A stretch of DNA of 50,318 bases from an uncultured Actinomyces sp. (GCA_900556405.1 USPB01000001.1:1-50318), one strand, 5' to 3'; shown: positions 106 to 7,746, counted from the first letter of the stretch. A program made the numbers and translations. The notes: a model not told the origin generated them from the letters alone.

Positions 106-1668
106 ATGGCACCGGCACGCAAGGGTCGACGACAGCGAGCGAAGACACCTCGCTTACGTCCCCAACCCGGCGCCACCCGATCCCTGATGCACGGGCGAGC
201 CCCGGCCTCGTCCCCCGCTCTCTCGGAAGAAACCCTCAGCCCACAGCCCTCCCCCATCGTCCGCCAAATCCCCGGAGGACCCAGCGGCCCCCACCCCCAG
301 GTCCCCACCTCCCGCATGCAGCGCGTGCGCGCCTGGCTCTCACGCCAAGCACGCTACTCGCCCGCACGCCTCGCACTGGGCACCTTCGCACTCATCATCG
401 GCGTCGTCACCGCGCTCCTGATGCTCCCCATCTCCTCCTCGTCGGACACGTCCGCGCCCTTCGTCGACGTACTCTTCACCGCCGTATCCGCCGTGTGCGT
501 CACCGGCCTGACCACCGTCGACACCGCGACCTACTGGTCCCCCTTCGGCCAAGCCGTCATCGCCGCCGGCATCGTCGTCGGCGGCCTGGGCGTCATGACC
601 CTCGCATCAATCCTCGGATTCGCGGTGTCACGCCACCTCGGCCTCACCCAGCGCATGCTCGCCACCCAGGAAACGGGAACCGGCGCCATGGGCCAGATCT
701 CGACGCTCCTCAAAGCCGTCATCGCCACATCACTGAGCATGCAGGCACTCCTCGCCGCCATGTTCCTCCCCCGCTTCCTCGCCATGGGATTCGACCCCGT
801 GCGTGCCATCTGGGATGCCGTCTTCATGGCGATCTCCGTGTTCAACAACGCCGGCTTCGTCATCCTCCCCGACGGCCTCGCGCCCCACGTCACCGACTGG
901 TGGATGCTCATCCCCATCATCCTGGGCACAACCGTGGGCGCCATCGGCTTCCCCGTCATCATGGACGTCGCCAAAAACCTGCGCACTCCGCGCCGCTGGC
1001 GCCTCCACACCAAGCTGACACTGTCGACCTACCTGATTCTGGCATTCGTCGGCGCCCTCGCAATGGCTCTCACCGAGTGGCACAACCCGACGACGCTCGG
1101 CGCAATCGATACGCCGTCGAAGATCCTCAACGCCATGCTCGCCGGCGTGAACTCCCGTTCTTCCGGCTTATCTGCGCTCGATGTGGGCGCCATGCACTCG
1201 CAAACCCACTTCGTCCAGGACATCCTCATGATGATCGGCGGCGGCTCCGCATCCACCGCGGGCGGCGTCAAGGTCACGACCTTCGCTGTCCTCGTGCTCG
1301 CCGTCATCGCCGAAGCCCGAGGCGACCGCGACATCGAAACCTTCGGCCGGCGCATCCCGACCTCCACGATCCGCCTGTCGGTCGCCGTGTCCCTGCTGGG
1401 CCTGGCGCTCGTCGCAATCTCCGTCGTACTCCTGATGTCGATGACGGACTACACGCTCGATATCATCCTCTTCGAGACCGTGTCAGCATTCGCGACCGTC
1501 GGCCTGTCCACCGGCATCACCCCGATCCTGCCCGTGGGCGCCAAATACGTGCTGATTGTCCTCATGTTCGCGGGCCGCACCGGCTCCATGACCGTGGCCG
1601 CAGCCCTTGCCCTGCGCCAGCGCTCCCGCGTCATCCGCATGCCCGAAGAGCAGCCCATCATCGGCTAA
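106..1668 (+). CDS. ktrB: TrkH/KtrB-family potassium uptake membrane subunit
   Basis: Multi-TM protein with four pore-loop motifs (SAVCVTGL, SVFNNAGF, NSRSSGL, SAFATVGLSTG) and STAGGVKVTT. RBS AAGGAG at 95-100 and a TATACT -10-like hexamer at 35-40. Confidence 0.93.
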   Translation: MAPARKGRRQRAKTPRLRPQPGATRSLMHGRAPASSPALSEETLSPQPSPIVRQIPGGPSGPHPQVPTSRMQRVRAWLSRQARYSPARLALGTFALIIGVVTALLMLPISSSSDTSAPFVDVLFTAVSAVCVTGLTTVDTATYWSPFGQAVIAAGIVVGGLGVMTLASILGFAVSRHLGLTQRMLATQETGTGAMGQISTLLKAVIATSLSMQALLAAMFLPRFLAMGFDPVRAIWDAVFMAISVFNNAGFVILPDGLAPHVTDWWMLIPIILGTTVGAIGFPVIMDVAKNLRTPRRWRLHTKLTLSTYLILAFVGALAMALTEWHNPTTLGAIDTPSKILNAMLAGVNSRSSGLSALDVGAMHSQTHFVQDILMMIGGGSASTAGGVKVTTFAVLVLAVIAEARGDRDIETFGRRIPTSTIRLSVAVSLLGLALVAISVVLLMSMTDYTLDIILFETVSAFATVGLSTGITPILPVGAKYVLIVLMFAGRTGSMTVAAALALRQRSRVIRMPEEQPIIG

Positions 1669-1737
1669 TTGCTGGTAGCGGGCGCCGTCGCGGCGCGCGG
1701 GCGGGTGGGCAGGCGGGTGGCCTGTTAACGCCAGAGG

Positions 1738-2018
1738 GCGAAAAAACTCGCCCAGCGCGCCCCTCCAACCGTTCCCGCGCGAAAAAGTTCGCCCAGCGCG
1801 CCCCTCCAACCGTTCCCGCGCGAAAAAGTTCGCCCAGCAACAGCCCAATCTTGGCCAAACCGCGAAAAAGTTCGCCCAGCACGCCCAAAAACACCAAAAT
1901 CTAGCCATTTTTCCCGAGCAGGGCGAACTTTTTCGCGTTTCCCGAACCAATTCACCCCGCAGGGCGAACTTTTTCGCGCTTCCCGAACCAATTCACCCCG
2001 CAGGGCGAACTTTTTCGC
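1738..2018. repeat. REP/BIME-like array: 4 forward + 3 inverted copies of a 19-bp motif at 41-42 bp period
   Basis: GCGAAAAA(G/A)(T/C)TCGCCCAGC at 1738, 1779, 1820 and 1862; near reverse complement GCAGGGCGAACTTTTTCGC at 1918, 1959 and 2000. Confidence 0.95.
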
Positions 2019-2106
2019 GCAGATTCAACACTCAACGTGTAATTCAGGCACACCCCTGGCCAGGCACACTCAACAGAGCACATTGGTAATAGAACGGCAA
2101 CCACTT

Positions 2107-2149
2107 GTCGTCCACAGGCTGTCTCTCCCACTCGTAGTTATCCACAGGC
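2107..2149 (+). promoter_or_regulatory. Pair of DnaA-box-like direct repeats
   Basis: GTCGTCCACAGGC (2107-2119) and GTTATCCACAGGC (2137-2149), 30 bp apart. The second contains the exact DnaA box TTATCCACA (2138-2146). Confidence 0.45.
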
Positions 2150-2247
2150 CCACGCGGAAGGCTTGAATCGTACCCACCATCGGCACACAGTGGGACTCAT
2201 GCGCCAACAAACAAAGAGGCCTACTAGCCTGTAACGAAGGAGTTGCG

Positions 2248-3261
2248 ATGTTGCGTGACCACGTGGAGTCTATCCGTTCTTCCCTAGTCGTTGCTGACTC
2301 GCACGCGACTAAGGATTGCATCCATAGGCGCTTGCAGAAAGGAGAACTCATTCGTCTTCTCACCGGCATTTGCATTCCTTCAGCACGGTTGATCGGACTG
2401 AACTCACGTGAGCGCAAAACAGCGCTTTTCATTGCTCGCATGTGCGCGCTGAGTCTGCGATATCCCGATTACGTCATCAGCGGCGGCGTCGCCGCTTACC
2501 TTCTCGGCCTCCCCGCCGACGACCAGATCGAGAAGCTCACACTGTATGCGCCATCTCGAGAACGCCCCCGCCAGATTCATTTTCCAGCAATCACAGTTGA
2601 GAAGAATGAACATTTTTCGGCCGCGACAACGCCCGTTTCTCGCCCCCGATCGCCAGTTCCCTCAATCACGTACTTAGGCTTCCGCATCGCGACACCGGCG
2701 CGAGTTGTTGTTGACTGCGCTCGCCTACTCAACAAACAGCACGCTTTTCCCATCGCCTGCGCAGGGTTGGCCCACGCGTGCCAGTTCGATCGTTTCCGTC
2801 AGGATGCGTCGCGGCCGCGGCAGGAGGAGGCGCGGAGGGATTTCCACGAGGCCTTGGATGCCACTCCCCGCAACGCCAGAGGACGCGGGCGCGCCCGTTG
2901 GATCGTCGACCATGCTGACGCTGGTTGTGAGTCTCCCGGCGAGGCCCTCGTGTTGCTTGCCTTGCTGCGCGCGGGGATCGCCGGGTTGACAACGCAGGAA
3001 GAAGTCCACATTGACGGCCGCACGTACTTCATTGATATCGCCCTACCCAACCTGAAGATCGCGATCGAATTTGATGGCCGCATCAAGTACGGGGAGACCG
3101 TCAGCCAGGTACACGACTCGATCGAGGCCGAGCAGCGTCGCCAGCGAGACCTTGAGCGGGCGGGCTGGAAGGTGATTCGCGTTCGGTGGTCGGACCTGCA
3201 AGTCATCGACGAGGTCCTCGCCCAAGTTTTAGTGGCAATCCGCGCGAAGGTCGGACGCTGA
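2248..3261 (+). CDS. AbiEi-like N-terminal region + DUF559/Vsr-like PD-(D/E)xK endonuclease domain protein
   Basis: C-terminal ESPGE...Q...FIDIALPNLKIAIEFDGRIKY...EQRRQRDLERAGWKVIRVRWSDL is typical of actinobacterial AbiEi/DUF559 proteins; ATPARVVVDCAR motif; RBS AAGGAG at 2237-2242. Confidence 0.8.
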   Translation: MLRDHVESIRSSLVVADSHATKDCIHRRLQKGELIRLLTGICIPSARLIGLNSRERKTALFIARMCALSLRYPDYVISGGVAAYLLGLPADDQIEKLTLYAPSRERPRQIHFPAITVEKNEHFSAATTPVSRPRSPVPSITYLGFRIATPARVVVDCARLLNKQHAFPIACAGLAHACQFDRFRQDASRPRQEEARRDFHEALDATPRNARGRGRARWIVDHADAGCESPGEALVLLALLRAGIAGLTTQEEVHIDGRTYFIDIALPNLKIAIEFDGRIKYGETVSQVHDSIEAEQRRQRDLERAGWKVIRVRWSDLQVIDEVLAQVLVAIRAKVGR

Positions 3262-3378
3262 TTGTCCGCATACCACAGCGCGGCCAGATGGCCGCGTCGG
3301 CAAGCCGTACGACCAGGCGACAGCAACTGCGGCTGGTGCAGCACCAACGACGCCAAGACGAGAGCCGACAAAGCCAGA

Positions 3379-3630
3379 CCAGCAGCAATGCGACCGCAGC
3401 CAGCAGCACCACCAGCGAGGCAGGCGCCAGCAGTAACGCCACCGCGGCCAGCAGCACCAACGAGGCCGAGACCAGCGGCCAAGCATCCAAGGACGGCAAC
3501 AACACAGGAACCAACAGCATGACCGGCGTCGGGAGCAGCAACGGCAACGAAGCTGGAACTAGGATCAAAGCAAACAAGAACGACAACAGCACCGGGACCA
3601 GCTTCCGCATGTTTCACGCATGTTTCACGC
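3379..3630. repeat. Degenerate CCAGCAGCA-rich tandem repeats and an 11-bp duplication
   Basis: Imperfect 48/45-bp duplication at 3379-3471; CGCATGTTTCA x2 at 3606-3627. Confidence 0.7.
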
Positions 3631-3739
3631 GCCGAACGTGTGCCCGCGACGGACACGCGCGACAGCCAACACCCACCACACCAGCGACGCGCGGCCGCAG
3701 CGTTCGCGGCACGCGCGCCCGCAGGGAAGAATGGAGGGT

Positions 3740-4417
3740 ATGGCAGATGAACGCGAGTCAAAGGAACTGCAGTCGGGAACGCTGGTCATCGGGCTGGGCC
3801 GTTTTGGCTCTGCGGTCGCGGTGACGCAAGACCAGTTGGGCTATGAGATCCTGGCGGTTGAAAAGAATCCCGCCCGTGTGCAGGCGTTCGCAGGGCGCTT
3901 CCCTCTTGTTGAGGCTGATGCAACCTCCAAGGACGCGCTTGAGCAGCTGGGCGCACGCGAGTTCCGCAGCGCAGTTGTCGGCGTGGGGTCGTCACTGGAG
4001 GCGGCGGTGTTGATCACGGCGAACCTGGTCGACATGGGTATTTCGTCAATCTGGGTGAAGGCGACGTCTTCGCAGCATGGCCGTATCCTGCGCCGCGTGG
4101 GAGCGCATCATGTTGTCTACCCGGATTTGGATGCTGGTAAGCGCACGGCGCACTTGGTGGGTGGCCGCATGGTTGACTACATCGAGATGGAGAAGGATGG
4201 CTTCTCGATCATGAAGTTACGCCCGCCGCAGGAGGTGCGCGGTTTCACGCTGGAGGAGCTGGATTTGCGCGGCCGTTATGGCGTGAATGTGCTGGCTATT
4301 CGTCGTCCGAAGCAGCGTTTTGAGTACGCGGATGCGTCCACGCGTATTAATGCCGACGACGAGATCATCGTCTCGGGCGATTCGCACCTGTTGGAGTATT
4401 TCGCGAATAGGCCGTAG
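3740..4417 (+). CDS. ktrA: TrkA/KtrA-family potassium uptake regulatory subunit (RCK_N + RCK_C)
   Basis: VIGLGRFGSAVA Rossmann motif, DAT...L..LG, GAHHVVYPD, LEELDLRGRYGVNVLAIRR. Start moved from 3620 to the in-frame ATG at 3740 (inference; ATG 3731 is an alternative). Confidence 0.92.
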   Translation: MADERESKELQSGTLVIGLGRFGSAVAVTQDQLGYEILAVEKNPARVQAFAGRFPLVEADATSKDALEQLGAREFRSAVVGVGSSLEAAVLITANLVDMGISSIWVKATSSQHGRILRRVGAHHVVYPDLDAGKRTAHLVGGRMVDYIEMEKDGFSIMKLRPPQEVRGFTLEELDLRGRYGVNVLAIRRPKQRFEYADASTRINADDEIIVSGDSHLLEYFANRP

Positions 4418-4588: not shown

Positions 4589-6046
4589 TCAGTGGCCATG
4601 GTGATGCGACCTATGCGGGGAGTGATGTCCGCCGCCGCTGTGGCTTCCACCCTTGTGGCTACCGCCGCTATGGCTGCCGCCGCTATGGCTGCCGCCCTTG
4701 TTGCCGCCACCATTGTGGCTACCGTTATGGCTCCCACCATTATGGTTGCCACCCTTGTGGTTACCACCGTTGTGGTTGCCACCCTTGTGGTCGCCATTGT
4801 TGTTGCCACTCTTGTGATCACCACCATTATGGTTGCCACCCTTGTGGTTACCACCGTTATGGTTGCCACCCTTGTGGTCGCCATTGTGGTTGCCACCCTT
4901 GTGATCACCGTTGTGGTTGCCACCCTTGTGATCACCGTTGTGGTTGCCCTTATGGTCGCCACCCTTGTGGTCACCACCCTTGTGGTCACCGCCACCATCA
5001 TGGCCGCCACCATCGTGGTCGGATTTACCGCCACCCCAGTCAATATGGGGCTCGATGCTGGGGTTAACCTCAATGTGGCGGTCTTCGCTATTGTCGACGT
5101 CACCGTTGTTGATGGTGCCATTGTTGTCACCGCCAACAACTGTGCCGCTGTTGTCTCCGCCAACCGAGGTGCCACCGGAGGTGCCACCGTTAGCCGTGCT
5201 ACCGCCACCGGCACTGCCGTCGCTACCGGCGGTGCCGCTCGTCGAGCCGCCTTCGCCGCAGCAACCGCCGCCGGGTGCCTGGCACTGCTCGCCGATGTGC
5301 TCGACGCCACGAGTCAGGTCATCACCAGCCGAGGTCATGACGGCGTAGATGGCCTCGATCGCCTGGAGGGCGTTCACAAGGACCTCGAGGATAGGCTCGA
5401 TGCGTCCGACCCACTTGGAAGTCTTACCAGCCACCTGGGCTGCCGCCACGGGCGTCGCGAGACCGAACGAGCAGATTTCTTCCGCGACGACCTCGAAACA
5501 CGTGACAACGATATCCGCGATAGCGCTCACGACGGCGTCGTGGATATTGTCAACAGAGTCCGCGACCTTGGACAGCGCTTCGCCGAAAGCACCCGACGCC
5601 TCGGACACGCCGTTGATCGCGCTGTAGACGACGGCTTGACGCTCCTGGTAGGCGCGTACGGCTTCACCGTGCATGTCGGCGAAGTCGCTCGCAGCTGCAT
5701 TTTCCAGCTCTTCAGCAATGGATGCGAGGGAGCTGGAGATGGAATCCCAGCTGGCGCTCATGCCGTACACCTGCCCGGAGTCGCCGGTCAGCTGGTTGAT
5801 CCAGGTTTTGAGCGGATCCACGTGCTGCATGATCCATTCGACGACAGAGCCTGCGATGCCACCGACAGGATCCAGCATCAGATTGCCGGCCTCCTCAACG
5901 AGTCCCCGCGCGGAATCAACGAGGTTGGTGACATCGCCCGAGCGCAGATCCTGGGCAGCATTGTAGAGAGTGTCAAAGACGGCCAGGCCCTCTGTCGGGG
6001 TGGTGTTGTCGATACTCCGAGTGTATTCGGGGGCTTCGGGACTCAC
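4589..6046 (-). CDS. Putative T7SS substrate: WXG100/EspA-like helical N-terminus + Gly/His/Asn/Asp/Lys low-complexity tail
   Basis: N-terminal DPVGGIAGSVVEWIMQHVDPLKTWINQLTGDSGQV...W...MHGEA resembles actinobacterial WXG100-like substrate domains. Tail of GGNHNGDHK-type repeats ending HHSPHRSHHHGH. GTG start overlaps the upstream stop (GTGA). Confidence 0.78.
   Translation of the reverse strand: MSPEAPEYTRSIDNTTPTEGLAVFDTLYNAAQDLRSGDVTNLVDSARGLVEEAGNLMLDPVGGIAGSVVEWIMQHVDPLKTWINQLTGDSGQVYGMSASWDSISSSLASIAEELENAAASDFADMHGEAVRAYQERQAVVYSAINGVSEASGAFGEALSKVADSVDNIHDAVVSAIADIVVTCFEVVAEEICSFGLATPVAAAQVAGKTSKWVGRIEPILEVLVNALQAIEAIYAVMTSAGDDLTRGVEHIGEQCQAPGGGCCGEGGSTSGTAGSDGSAGGGSTANGGTSGGTSVGGDNSGTVVGGDNNGTINNGDVDNSEDRHIEVNPSIEPHIDWGGGKSDHDGGGHDGGGDHKGGDHKGGDHKGNHNGDHKGGNHNGDHKGGNHNGDHKGGNHNGGNHKGGNHNGGDHKSGNNNGDHKGGNHNGGNHKGGNHNGGSHNGSHNGGGNKGGSHSGGSHSGGSHKGGSHSGGGHHSPHRSHHHGH
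4592..5035 (-). repeat. Coding minisatellite (12/15-bp units) encoding G(G)xHN/K repeats
   Basis: Repeated GCCACCCTTGTGG / CACCGTTGTGGTT units on the + strand. Confidence 0.9.
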
Positions 6047-7746
6047 TTCTTAACTCCTTCGAACAGGAAGCGACGCAGCGTCCGCTCCTCATCCTGACGC
6101 TGACGGTAGAGGAATGTTTCGATGTCCTTATCGCCGCGATCATCCTGTCGTTCGAACAGTGAACGCACGTCGTCCGTATTCGTATCGGGGTTGGCCTTGG
6201 AGAACTCCTCGATGCGGGCGGACTGGGCCTTCTCCTGCTGCTCAACGAAGCTGCGGTAGCTGGCCTGCTGGTCGTTGCGCTGCTGCGACATGAAGGTGTC
6301 AAAGTCCCTGGATGTCGCCTGCGGGTGATCCTGCACGTACTGGCGGATCTGCGTTTCCTCATCGGTACGTTGACGCGACAGGAAGTCCGTCATCGCGTCC
6401 TGCTGCTGTTGCTGGTTGGACTCGATAAGGGTCTTTATCTGGGAGATATCCGTACCCGGATGCGCCTCAGCGTAGCGTGCGAGAGCCTCGCTCTGGTCTT
6501 CCTTCTGGCGCTCGTAGAACTGCGACAGATCGGTGTTTTCGTCATCGCGCTGCTTCTCGAGGAACGCGCGAAGATCGTCCTCGTTCGAGGTGATCTTGTC
6601 GTGGCCGCCAAGGAGACTGTCGAAGTCATTACCGGGGGCACTGTGGTCCCCGTGCTTGCCATCGGAACCATCGTGGCCGTCGGAACCGTCCTTGCCGTCA
6701 TGACCGTCGTGACCGGAACCGTCCTTGCCGTCATGACCATCGTGACCGTTCGAACCATCGTGACCGTCGGAACCGTCCTTGCCGTCATGACCGTCGTGAC
6801 CGTCGGAACCGTCCTTGCCGTCATGACCATCGTGACCGTCGGAACCATCCTTGCCATCGTGGCCCGAACCGTCGTGACCGGAGCCATCGTGGCCCGAACC
6901 GTCGTGACCGGAACCGTCGTGGCCCGAACCATCGTGACCCGAACCATCGTGACCCGAACCATCGTGACCCGAACCATCGTGGCCTGAACCGTCAGAGCCG
7001 CCAGAACCATCAGAACTGCCGGAGCCGCCGGAGCTATGCGTGCCAGGGGTCGGAGGAATCGGGGTGGAAGGCTTATCGCCGCTGGAATCACCGCCGCCGG
7101 AGCCATCGTGGCCCGAACCGTCGTGACCCGAACCGTCAGAGCCGCCAGAACCGTCAGAGCCACCGGAGCCGCCGGAGCTATGCGTGCCAGGGGTCGGAGG
7201 AATCGGGGTAGAGGGCTTGTCGTCCCCGGAGCCATCGCCGCCGCCGCTGGAATCTCCACCACCACCGCTGCTGGAACCGCCACCGCCACTGCTGGAACCG
7301 CCGCCGCCGCTGCTGGAACCACCACCGCCGCCGCTGCTGGAACCGCCACCACCGCTGCTGGAACCACCGCCGCCGGGCGAGGGCGTCGGAGAAGGACCAG
7401 GCTGAGGCTGAGGCTGCGGATTGTCCTGCCCCTCATGAGCCTTCTTAATATCCTCCTTGATTTTCTGCTCAAGATCGTCCATCTCCTGAGCCCATTGAAG
7501 GAGGCAGTTAACGAGACGCTTCTCGGCACCGGCGCAGTCGGTGATCATCTTGGTCAGATTCTCGATCTGCGAATTGACGGGAGGAGCGAAGAAGGCACAC
7601 ATGAGGCCGAACGCATTGCCGCTGGCCTGACCATGCGTCGCGTTAGCGACACCCACATTCTTGTCGAGGGCCGATGCGTTGTCGCTGACCGTGGATGCGT
7701 GGCTACGGATTGTCGCCGTATTGACGCCGAGATCCACCCCGCTCAT
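6043..7746 (-). CDS. Putative T7SS substrate: EspC-like N-terminal domain, Gly/Ser linker, GSGHD and collagen-like GxD repeats, helical C-terminal repeats
   Basis: First ~100 aa (LGVNTATIRSHASTV...AFGLMCAFF...QWAQEMDDLE) resemble the 'type VII secretion target'/EspC family. ATGA overlap with the upstream gene and GTGA overlap with the downstream gene. Confidence 0.75.
   Translation of the reverse strand: MSGVDLGVNTATIRSHASTVSDNASALDKNVGVANATHGQASGNAFGLMCAFFAPPVNSQIENLTKMITDCAGAEKRLVNCLLQWAQEMDDLEQKIKEDIKKAHEGQDNPQPQPQPGPSPTPSPGGGGSSSGGGGSSSGGGGGSSSGGGGSSSGGGGSSSGGGGDSSGGGDGSGDDKPSTPIPPTPGTHSSGGSGGSDGSGGSDGSGHDGSGHDGSGGGDSSGDKPSTPIPPTPGTHSSGGSGSSDGSGGSDGSGHDGSGHDGSGHDGSGHDGSGHDGSGHDGSGHDGSGHDGSGHDGKDGSDGHDGHDGKDGSDGHDGHDGKDGSDGHDGSNGHDGHDGKDGSGHDGHDGKDGSDGHDGSDGKHGDHSAPGNDFDSLLGGHDKITSNEDDLRAFLEKQRDDENTDLSQFYERQKEDQSEALARYAEAHPGTDISQIKTLIESNQQQQQDAMTDFLSRQRTDEETQIRQYVQDHPQATSRDFDTFMSQQRNDQQASYRSFVEQQEKAQSARIEEFSKANPDTNTDDVRSLFERQDDRGDKDIETFLYRQRQDEERTLRRFLFEGVKK
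6640..7375 (-). repeat. Coding repeats: 9-bp GxD units, nine 15-bp GSGHD units, a 144-bp internal duplication and GGGSSS units
   Basis: GAGCTATGCGTGCCAGGGGTCGGAGGAATCGGGG occurs at ~7031 and ~7175; tandem ACC(A/G)TCGTG(A/G)CCCGA-like units at ~6855-6990. Confidence 0.9.

Follow-up and report, generated by a model that had tools for sequence, protein, structure and literature searches.

The window analyzed here, a stretch of 50,318 nucleotides from an uncultured Actinomyces sp. (GCA_900556405.1 USPB01000001.1:1-50318), carries near its left end the K+ transport genes ktrB and ktrA, separated by 2071 bp that hold an array of short palindromic repeats (termed T1), a pair of DnaA-box-like sites and an open reading frame (ORF) of 337 codons for a predicted nuclease of AbiEi/DUF559 type, ORF337. 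Comparison within the genus identifies this interval as an old, clade-specific insertion, and a statistical comparison of gene flanks supports a link between the nuclease family of ORF337 and structured palindromic repeats that extends beyond this one array. The principal features of the locus are as follows.

106..1668, plus strand: ktrB, a TrkH-family K+ transporter gene, the left flank (Pfam TrkH, expectation value (E) 2.4e-47)
1738..1881, plus strand: left arm of T1, four forward units of 41-42 bp (repeat search and Tandem Repeats Finder, TRF)
1882..1917, no strand assigned: centre of T1, 36 bp, A/T-richer, conserved in genomic copies and at orthologous loci
1918..2020, minus strand: right arm of T1, three reverse units (inverted repeat pairs) that pair with the left arm in single-strand folds
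2108..2148, plus strand: paired DnaA-box-like motif (TCGTCCACAGG, 19 nt, TTATCCACAGG) phased at 30 bp, upstream of ORF337 by about 100-140 nt
2248..3261, plus strand: ORF337, nuclease gene, 337 aa (Pfam DUF559)
2248..2883, plus strand: residues 1-212 of ORF337, hypervariable AbiEi-like N part with winged helix and middle domain (PADLOC AbiEi and borderline structure matches)
2884..3261, plus strand: residues 213-337 of ORF337, Vsr/DUF559-type PD-(D/E)xK nuclease domain (Pfam; fold match over residues 227-337)
3740..4417, plus strand: ktrA, gene for a TrkA-type regulatory subunit, the right flank (Pfam TrkA_N 2.2e-21, TrkA_C 1.5e-10)

Along the spacer the order is T1 array, DnaA-box-like sites, ORF337, a T-poor tract and a tandem TGTTTCACGC repeat. 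The ktrB product scores 271.7 bits with NCBIfam TIGR00933, under the cut-off of 331 for that model, and KtrA protein identity over the close clade amounts to 97-100%. What the original prediction, made from the sequence of the stretch alone, had described in this interval is borne out throughout by measurement: a separation of ktrB and ktrA by some 2.07 kb, a structured repeat array (4+3 inverted 41-bp units), DnaA-box-like sites (TCGTCCACAGG at 2108-2118 and TTATCCACAGG at 2138-2148, the first box lying about 90 bp past the array), a nuclease gene with an AT-richer 5' half (G+C content 0.54-0.58 over 1801-2700 vs 0.63-0.70 in the flanks) and a second low-complexity tract, namely a spacer (3262-3739) with 7% T and imperfect 24/48-bp repeats at 3376-3476 (TRF). 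It had likewise reported neither a transposase nor a target-site duplication, and we found no transposase among the ORFs and Pfam matches of the interval and identified no target-site duplication at the cassette. An Rfam scan of 1500-4000 at E up to 1 returned a single snoRNA match at chance level (E 0.5), so that no known RNA family is found there.

ORF337 joins two halves of very different conservation, the C half being nearly invariant and the N half hypervariable in an alignment of 21 sequences. Residues 259-331 match PF04480 (DUF559) with 23.1 bits, above the cut-off of 20.6, and a match to PF18741 (MTES_1575) with 30.1 bits lies under the cut-off of 38.2. An AlphaFold model built on the 21-sequence alignment (predicted local distance difference test (pLDDT) 92, predicted template modeling score (pTM) 0.89) superimposes through residues 227-337 on the Vsr-like nucleases I-Bth0305I (3r3p, Z 12.8), NGO0050 (3hrl, Z 12.6) and Vsr itself (1cw0, Z 11.2), with root-mean-square deviations of 1.9-2.6 Å over 91-104 residues. 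By this model the C half is a predicted nuclease of the Vsr/DUF559 fold, which is also that of the nuclease domains of PvuRts1I and AbaSI, and the invariant residues D263, E274, D276 and K280 are assigned by motif position as its putative active site. The resemblance of the N part to AbiEi is weaker: PADLOC matches have E values of 5e-4 to 1.3e-2, the AbiEi protein Rv2827c (PDB 1zel) aligns over residues 8-319 at a borderline Z of 6.2, nucleotidyltransferase folds align with residues 54-240 at an equally borderline Z of 7.4-7.8, and Pfam AbiEi gives no match to ORF337 at E up to 0.1; one homologue (P0093) carries PF13338. PADLOC also returned a weak match to a methyl-directed type II enzyme (E 3.8e-3). 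The family is sizeable: at E up to 1e-3, clustering at 50% identity leaves 3359 representatives, and the matches listed are mostly of similar length. Plasmid sequences searched at E up to 1e-8 and phage sequences searched at E up to 1e-6 gave no match to ORF337, whose PHROG matches are marginal (E 1.2e-3). Its neighbors are ktrB and ktrA, with no further family-matching ORF in the interval; a gene for the AbiEii toxin (DUF1814 nucleotidyltransferase) is absent beside it, and no methyltransferase occurs among the ORFs and Pfam matches between the two ktr genes.

The ktr locus was compared in 40 genomes of the genus, taken from 59 with a KtrA match. An ORF337 orthologue lies between ktrB and ktrA in 12 of the 40 loci, KtrA identity being at least 97% in all 12, and the gene is syntenic in 13/13 close genomes when the window is counted with its 12 compared close relatives (12/12). 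Where the gene is lacking (28 loci), ktrB and ktrA are co-oriented neighbors in 23, some 40-383 bp apart; the other five comprise two loci with different inserts, one with disA and radA, one with an inverted ktrB and one contig that ends before ktrB. The statement in the original prediction that the two genes are normally adjacent agrees with what the genus presents, and the cassette is an insertion relative to other genus species. The junction itself is plastic, carrying WXG100 genes in G018 (L052), insertion-sequence genes in G017 (L053), disA plus radA in G022 (L070) and an inverted ktrB in G024 (L067).

ORF337 is under purifying selection, the ratio of nonsynonymous to synonymous divergence (dN/dS) being 0.22-0.43 over the N half (residues 1-212) and 0.07-0.13 over the C half (residues 213-337), and this together with its synteny in 13 close genomes makes the insertion old. 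Since synonymous divergence (dS) in the flanking genes reaches 0.5-1.15 among the compared genomes, the selection acting on the gene further implies that the insertion predates the split of these species. Divergence is not uniform along the locus. Over 106-4417 dS forms a mosaic, with 0.03 for ktrB and 0.76 for ktrA in the comparison with G070, and with 1.14 for the N half of ORF337 and 0.11-0.21 for the flanking genes in that with G046. By this mosaic, recombination has reshuffled the N-half alleles of ORF337; jumps in dS along the locus indicate breakpoints inside or adjoining the cassette.

The T1 array consists of forward units that begin at 1738, 1779, 1820 and 1862 (TRF scores 188 and 199) and reverse units at 1918-1937, 1959-1978 and 2000-2019, all with a period of 41-42 bp and each containing the near-palindrome GCGAA-N4-TTCGC. 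Folded as single-stranded sequence, 1725-2035 forms three helices of about 20 bp with loops between them, at a z of about -13 and with 0/100 shuffles folding as well. The 16-nt core of the unit, GCGAAAAAGTTCGCCCAGC, has 21 exact copies in the 1.97-Mb assembly, or 52 when up to 2 mismatches are allowed, and the GCGAAAAAGTTCGCCC array is among roughly 16 of its kind in the genome, always laid out as n forward units, a gap and n reverse units. The 15 other loci adjoin housekeeping genes, among them dnaK-, dnaB-, ideR-, asd-, sucCD-, gltX-, uvrD- and phosphotransferase-system-type genes. Pfam scanning of 133 ORFs of at least 130 aa within 1.5 kb of them returned no DUF559-type gene, only one copy has a Mutator-family transposase nearby, at a distance of about 1.3 kb, and none of the other DUF559/MTES_1575-type genes (on contigs C99, C92, C142, C122 and C22) carries T1. 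As T1 is absent from all other DUF559-type genes, the co-location of GCGAAAAAGTTCGCCCAGC with DUF559 paralogs put forward by the original prediction fails (0/15 other loci). A Y1 transposase of the RAYT type (PF01797) was found in 0/5 close genomes.

T1 is present in 16-114 copies in 17 of 61 genus genomes, all of the close clade, and at background level (at most 8) in the other 44; strains and species differ in its unit number. Of the 53 copies in the complete genome G016 (C1), 48 fall in the origin-proximal 38%, at 12-566 or 2037-2308 kb of 2360 kb. For T1, whose arms are inverted, no terminal duplication, parent transposase-bearing element or transcript was identified, and comparison of a solitary copy with empty sites gave no clean boundaries or target duplication, the 1.9-kb query consisting nearly entirely of dispersed repeats. 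The T1 array of the window is one copy of a dispersed, modular, palindromic repeat within one of many miniature-repeat nests. Comparison of the genome with itself yields 149 short-repeat islands covering 2.2% of its bases, and 122 of these merge into one network under single-linkage clustering because the nests are composite; T1 and a second array type, T2, are modules of the same composite elements, and both are found across the allele classes of the ORF337 N half. The islands are nests of several modules of about 80-150 bp, for example at C24:12117-13507, C26:2475-3532 and C144:1900-3800. One module is a transposable element of the miniature inverted-repeat type (MITE) with 18-bp terminal inverted repeats in about 35 copies, another holds a CGGCGTGTCGC doublet at 15 loci, and island repeats number dozens to hundreds of copies in related genomes. 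A dispersed element of about 280 bp at C92:4228-4513, 3' of the nuclease paralog on that contig, has copies that adjoin T1 loci on C76 and C5 and several more in G016, G062 and G059. Repeat nests generally appear to cluster in the origin-proximal part of the G016 chromosome.

A tie between nuclease and repeats emerges when the family, rather than the single array, is considered. All four AbiEi/DUF559-type paralogs in the genome have a repeat island within 300 bp upstream, and three of the four additionally have one within 35 bp downstream; random 1-kb windows have such islands in 4.0% of cases upstream, 2.2% downstream and 0.25% on both sides. We then scored bracketing by comparing the 500 bp on each side of a gene and counting matches that reached 80 bits. 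By this measure direct repeats enclose three of the four paralogs, on C99 (114 bp at 92% identity), C92 (104 bp at 88%) and C142 (111 bp at 77%), vs 1/386 control ORFs (long, with high G+C at third codon positions, GC3) from the same genome. From 122 listed family matches in 40 relatives, 40 were chosen by match length and contig size with their flanks unseen; 15 of the 38 evaluable members proved bracketed, 14 of them directly, and two belong to other genera (L162, L163). Among control ORFs from the 40 ktr loci 1/58 is bracketed, a Mutator transposase with inverted ends, and none directly. Fisher tests against the 1/386 and 1/58 controls give p values of 1.5e-16 and 1.4e-6, respectively, for positives that are partly related loci.

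The flanking repeats are mostly palindromic, and at least four (L144, L148, L158, L160) are built like T1, with forward units, a centre and reverse units of other sequence. Each of the four paralogs has its own, different flanking repeat. On C99 and C92 the two flank copies are mutual best matches in the genome, those of C99 matching each other over 110 nt and other copies over 77-80 nt, and the C99 site in G016 and G061 presents a single repeat copy and no gene. Direct repeats also bracket the ORF337 orthologues of G004 (125 bp at 92%), G013 (164 bp at 97%) and G076 (781 bp at 80%), and an array of some type is found in all 13 orthologous upstream spacers. Together these comparisons lend statistical support to a link of the AbiEi/DUF559-type nuclease family with structured palindromic repeats. 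The repeat-linked nuclease of the original prediction finds support at the level of the family, which is tied to palindromic arrays. The private pairing of ORF337 with T1, which is one-sided here, is not supported in the form proposed; the gene holds its site in 13/13 close genomes, and the upstream repeat type differs between them. The link appears to be undescribed in the literature searched: we found no paper treating DUF559 together with AbiEi, no link to repeats in the titles and opening lines of abstracts that mention DUF559, and none on Schaalia repeat elements among the matches listed.

The two DnaA-box-like sites upstream of ORF337 belong to a wider pattern. The genome contains 22 occurrences of the motif TATCCACAGG where about 2.3 would be expected, and TCCACA-N24-TCCACA forms 14 pairs, with 0-3 pairs at any other gap from 18 to 30. 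Pairs sit 35-110 nt upstream of start codons, and by Pfam the genes behind them include a 3-methyladenine glycosylase (tag), DUF4244 of a Tad cluster, WXG100, an M23 peptidase, yraN followed by comM, an FtsK/SpoIIIE protein, single-stranded DNA-binding protein (SSB), a ComEA-type protein, paralog C92 and ORF337. The pairs lie at 2108-2148 of the window and on contigs C6, C20, C47, C50, C66 (two), C72, C74, C92, C106 and C129 of assembly G000. Single boxes precede a GmrSD_C nuclease gene, paralog C142 and dnaB. The pair, with a gap of 22-24 nt, is kept in 12 of the 13 ORF337 orthologous loci and stands upstream in 13 of 40 family loci of other genomes. In Bifidobacterium pseudocatenulatum a Tad cluster with DUF4244, ssb2, WXG100, dprA-comM-yraN and comEA-comEC are induced more than 10-fold under transformation-promoting conditions (PMC13660472), and judged by sequence-based assignments the pair-marked genes overlap this induced set (Table S3 of PMC13660472) and form a competence-like set. 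How competence is regulated in this phylum is reported to be poorly known (PMC8467076, PMC12849477). The paired TTATCCACAGG motif may serve as operator for an actinobacterial competence regulon, or for a DnaA-dependent one. Clusters of four to five nnATCCACAG boxes, which probably represent oriC and the dnaA promoter region, are seen upstream of rpmH/dnaA and between dnaA and dnaN (G000:C210:1-560; end and start of G016:C1, L117 and L115). The boxes in the spacer are a promoter-proximal pair that ORF337 has in common with competence-type genes, and do not mark an origin. The position of dnaA was taken from G016 because the gene was not found in the 80% complete assembly of the window.

Three further features occupy the spacer downstream of ORF337.

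3203..3610, minus strand: ORF of 135 aa, rich in Leu, Val, Ala and Pro, overlapping the end of ORF337 and spanning the T-poor tract
3290..3600, no strand assigned: T-poor low-complexity tract, present in the genome of the window only among the 13 orthologous loci
3606..3630, plus strand: tandem (A/G)TGTTTCACGC repeat native to the region upstream of ktrA (TRF period 11, 2.3 copies)

The T-poor tract has no second copy in the genome. The minus-strand ORF gave no Pfam or PHROG match and has an ambiguous G+C pattern over its codon positions; base composition alone might produce such an ORF, or it may encode a small membrane protein. The (A/G)TGTTTCACGC repeat occurs in 2-3 copies in all 13 orthologous spacers and at the gene-free 383-bp site of G015 (L054), and may be a ktrA operator; a doublet resembling it is seen at C92:1814-1836. 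Beyond ktrA, at 4589-7746 on the minus strand, two long ORFs (485 and 567 aa) consist of extreme low-complexity repeats of Gly, His, Asn, Asp and Ser (GGDHKGGNHN and DGSGHDGSG types) and may encode secreted or type VII secretion-associated proteins.

Our preferred reading, to which we give a probability of about 50%, is that a self-contained nuclease cassette entered between ktrB and ktrA in an old, clade-specific insertion and adjoins one copy of a genome-wide repeat, and that the cassette belongs to a family bracketed by direct palindromic repeats and moving by recombination. The cassette would comprise its own promoter region with the paired motif and a gene in which an AbiEi-like DNA-binding N half is joined to a nuclease C half. 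ORF337 and T1 would not form a private pair, family members sitting typically between two direct palindromic repeats, often iteron arrays. The variable N half may recognize repeats of the flanking type, the nuclease domain would make a DNA break, and the cassette would be gained or lost by recombination at the repeats, leaving two copies at occupied sites and one at empty sites, with expression probably coupled to the competence-like regulon. Several observations weigh against this reading. In the window ORF337 is unbracketed, T1 lying upstream only and nothing similar downstream, and the same holds for 10 of the 13 orthologues, the window included. The array type at the locus differs among orthologues (T1, T1b, T2, T2', T3), and T1 is abundant in G004, G013 and G069, whose N-half allele is 64-66% identical, so that no clean match of allele to repeat family exists; allele and repeat type vary together at the ORF337 locus but are physically linked there, and T1 is abundant across allele classes. 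The 15 bracketed members in other genomes are not independent, since several, among them L148, L158 and L160, are orthologues that have one array family in common, and the controls are long, high-GC3, core-like ORFs. The pair motif is indistinguishable from the DnaA boxes that cluster at rpmH/dnaA and in the dnaA-dnaN interval. Finally, these genomes are full of nested miniature repeats (122/149 islands linked), and neutral repeat accumulation around dispensable genes could give some of the association.

A serious rival, though one we consider less likely, is that an ordinary accessory nuclease gene and the repeats are neighbors by coincidence, long, dispensable and AT-richer spacers tolerating miniature-repeat insertion with no functional link. 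It gains from T1 standing beside unrelated housekeeping genes at 15 other loci, from a G070 spacer with three arrays in a row and a G076 spacer with about 1.6 kb of units, both resembling a landing pad, from the multi-module build of the repeat islands and from the switch of repeat type at the ORF337 locus between lineages. It does not sit well with direct bracketing of 3/4 paralogs here and 14/38 members elsewhere against 1/386 and 0/58 in controls, with flank copies on C99 and C92 that are each other's closest relatives, the C99 match exceeding the repeat core, or with the recurrence of bracketing in other genera (L162, L163). A still tighter coupling than the one we prefer, with ORF337 acting in the manner of a RAYT to disperse a cognate repeat of its own, the GCGAAAAAGTTCGCCC array, over the genome, seems unlikely to us. 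A single-copy, syntenic and vertically inherited nuclease gene does stand beside a palindromic repeat that is scattered over the same genomes, high T1 numbers are confined to the gene-bearing clade, no Y1 transposase offers an alternative source of the repeats in 5/5 close genomes, and the DNA-binding half is hypervariable. Yet T1 is on one side of ORF337 only, 5 of 13 orthologues lack it at the locus, 23-32 copies populate genomes whose N half is about 65% identical, G076 has the gene and only 4 T1-like matches, and the clade correlation is confounded by shared descent. A lone PD-(D/E)xK nuclease, moreover, is not known to have strand-transfer activity, which weighs in the same direction.

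Two readings leave the repeats aside or give them another role. ORF337 might serve in defence or DNA surveillance, as a solitary restriction-like or AbiE-derived nuclease whose specificity domain diversifies against incoming DNA and which is perhaps induced in competence. The weak PADLOC matches (AbiEi at E 5e-4, the methyl-directed enzyme at 3.8e-3), the fold it has in common with PvuRts1I and AbaSI, the fast N half with an allele-class dS of 1.14 against G046 vs 0.11-0.21 in the flanks, as under diversifying or balancing selection, and a promoter pair common to DNA-uptake genes, with a single such box before the GmrSD_C nuclease gene, are all in keeping with this. We nevertheless consider it doubtful, as the interval holds no AbiEii partner or methyltransferase, ORF337 has no phage or plasmid match, dN/dS stays below 1 throughout and the flanking direct repeats are left unexplained. 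Far less probable again is a replication origin, plasmid-like or chromosomal, suggested by the succession of a 41-bp-phased array reminiscent of iterons, an A/T-richer centre, two DnaA-box-like sites and a winged-helix-type, initiator-like gene. Arrays of this kind are spread over about 16 places on the chromosome, next to housekeeping genes, the box pair recurs as a promoter-proximal motif at 13 loci, the locus is some 413 kb from dnaA in complete genome G016, and the C domain has a nuclease fold, not a Rep fold; with the arrays dispersed and box clusters lying instead at rpmH/dnaA and between dnaA and dnaN, the origin reading is close to refuted.

If the preferred reading of a recombining, repeat-bracketed cassette family is extended, AbiEi-like/Vsr-type nucleases might partner an undescribed class of mobile DNA, in which a gene lies between direct iteron arrays, its N half recognizing and its nuclease half breaking DNA, with solitary arrays moved in trans or left by cassette loss and with spread coupled to competence. 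We advance this extension tentatively. If true, it would provide a counterpart in function to RAYT/REPIN, based on another enzyme and spread by natural transformation and repeat-guided recombination. The present data hint at such a repeat-linked mobile cassette type, and give DUF559/AbiEi-type proteins, very common in Actinobacteria, a testable context; we know of no established function for them. A three-part genomic signature, namely direct palindromic repeats on both sides, a single copy at empty sites, and the union of a hypervariable DNA-binding half with a conserved nuclease half, makes these proteins candidates for a repeat-associated nuclease system. The paired TTATCCACAGG motif is a candidate operator for a competence regulon of Actinomycetaceae, including oral Schaalia, and the dense miniature-repeat nests near the origin may shape genome plasticity in Schaalia and relatives.

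The cassette can be compared with several known systems. The N part of ORF337 bears a weak resemblance to AbiEi of the type IV AbiE toxin-antitoxin systems (PADLOC E 5e-4, Rv2827c at Z 6.2, one PF13338 homologue), whereas ORF337 comes without an AbiEii toxin gene and ends in a nuclease domain. Its catalytic domain has the same fold as Vsr, NGO0050 and I-Bth0305I (Z 11.2-12.8), and, in the manner of a free-standing homing endonuclease gene, ORF337 lies between conserved neighbors and has empty sites in relatives, being present in 13 genomes while ktrB and ktrA adjoin in 23 of 28 genomes without it. Unlike Vsr and I-Bth0305I, it has a different DNA-binding part and has long been fixed and vertically inherited at its site, and unlike homing sites, genes of the cassette family are flanked by long duplications. 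T1 resembles pneumococcal BOX elements, mycobacterial interspersed repetitive units (MIRU), bacterial interspersed mosaic elements (BIMEs) and MITEs in being intergenic, dispersed and made of variable tandem units with inverted symmetry; it differs in that its copies cluster origin-proximally in G016. Two direct copies at an occupied site and one at an empty site recall long terminal repeats (LTR) and their solo remnants, or Campbell-type integration, although no integrase or reverse transcriptase accompanies the cassette and its repeats are palindromes of about 100 bp. A further parallel is RAYT/REPIN, where a single-copy, vertically inherited nuclease gene likewise adjoins dispersed intergenic palindromic repeats, and different paralogs go with different repeats. 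The enzymes are unlike, a PD-(D/E)xK fold with an AbiEi-like half in the cassette and an HUH Y1 transposase in RAYT, as are the repeats, which in the cassette family are arrays of 19-42-bp units, their flank copies being direct duplicates of about 100 bp or more where REP (repetitive extragenic palindromic) sequences are inverted. Flanking on both sides by an own dispersed palindrome, as in RAYT/REPIN, does not extend to ORF337 in the window and is seen at C99, C92 and C142 and at the ORF337 orthologues of G004, G013 and G076.

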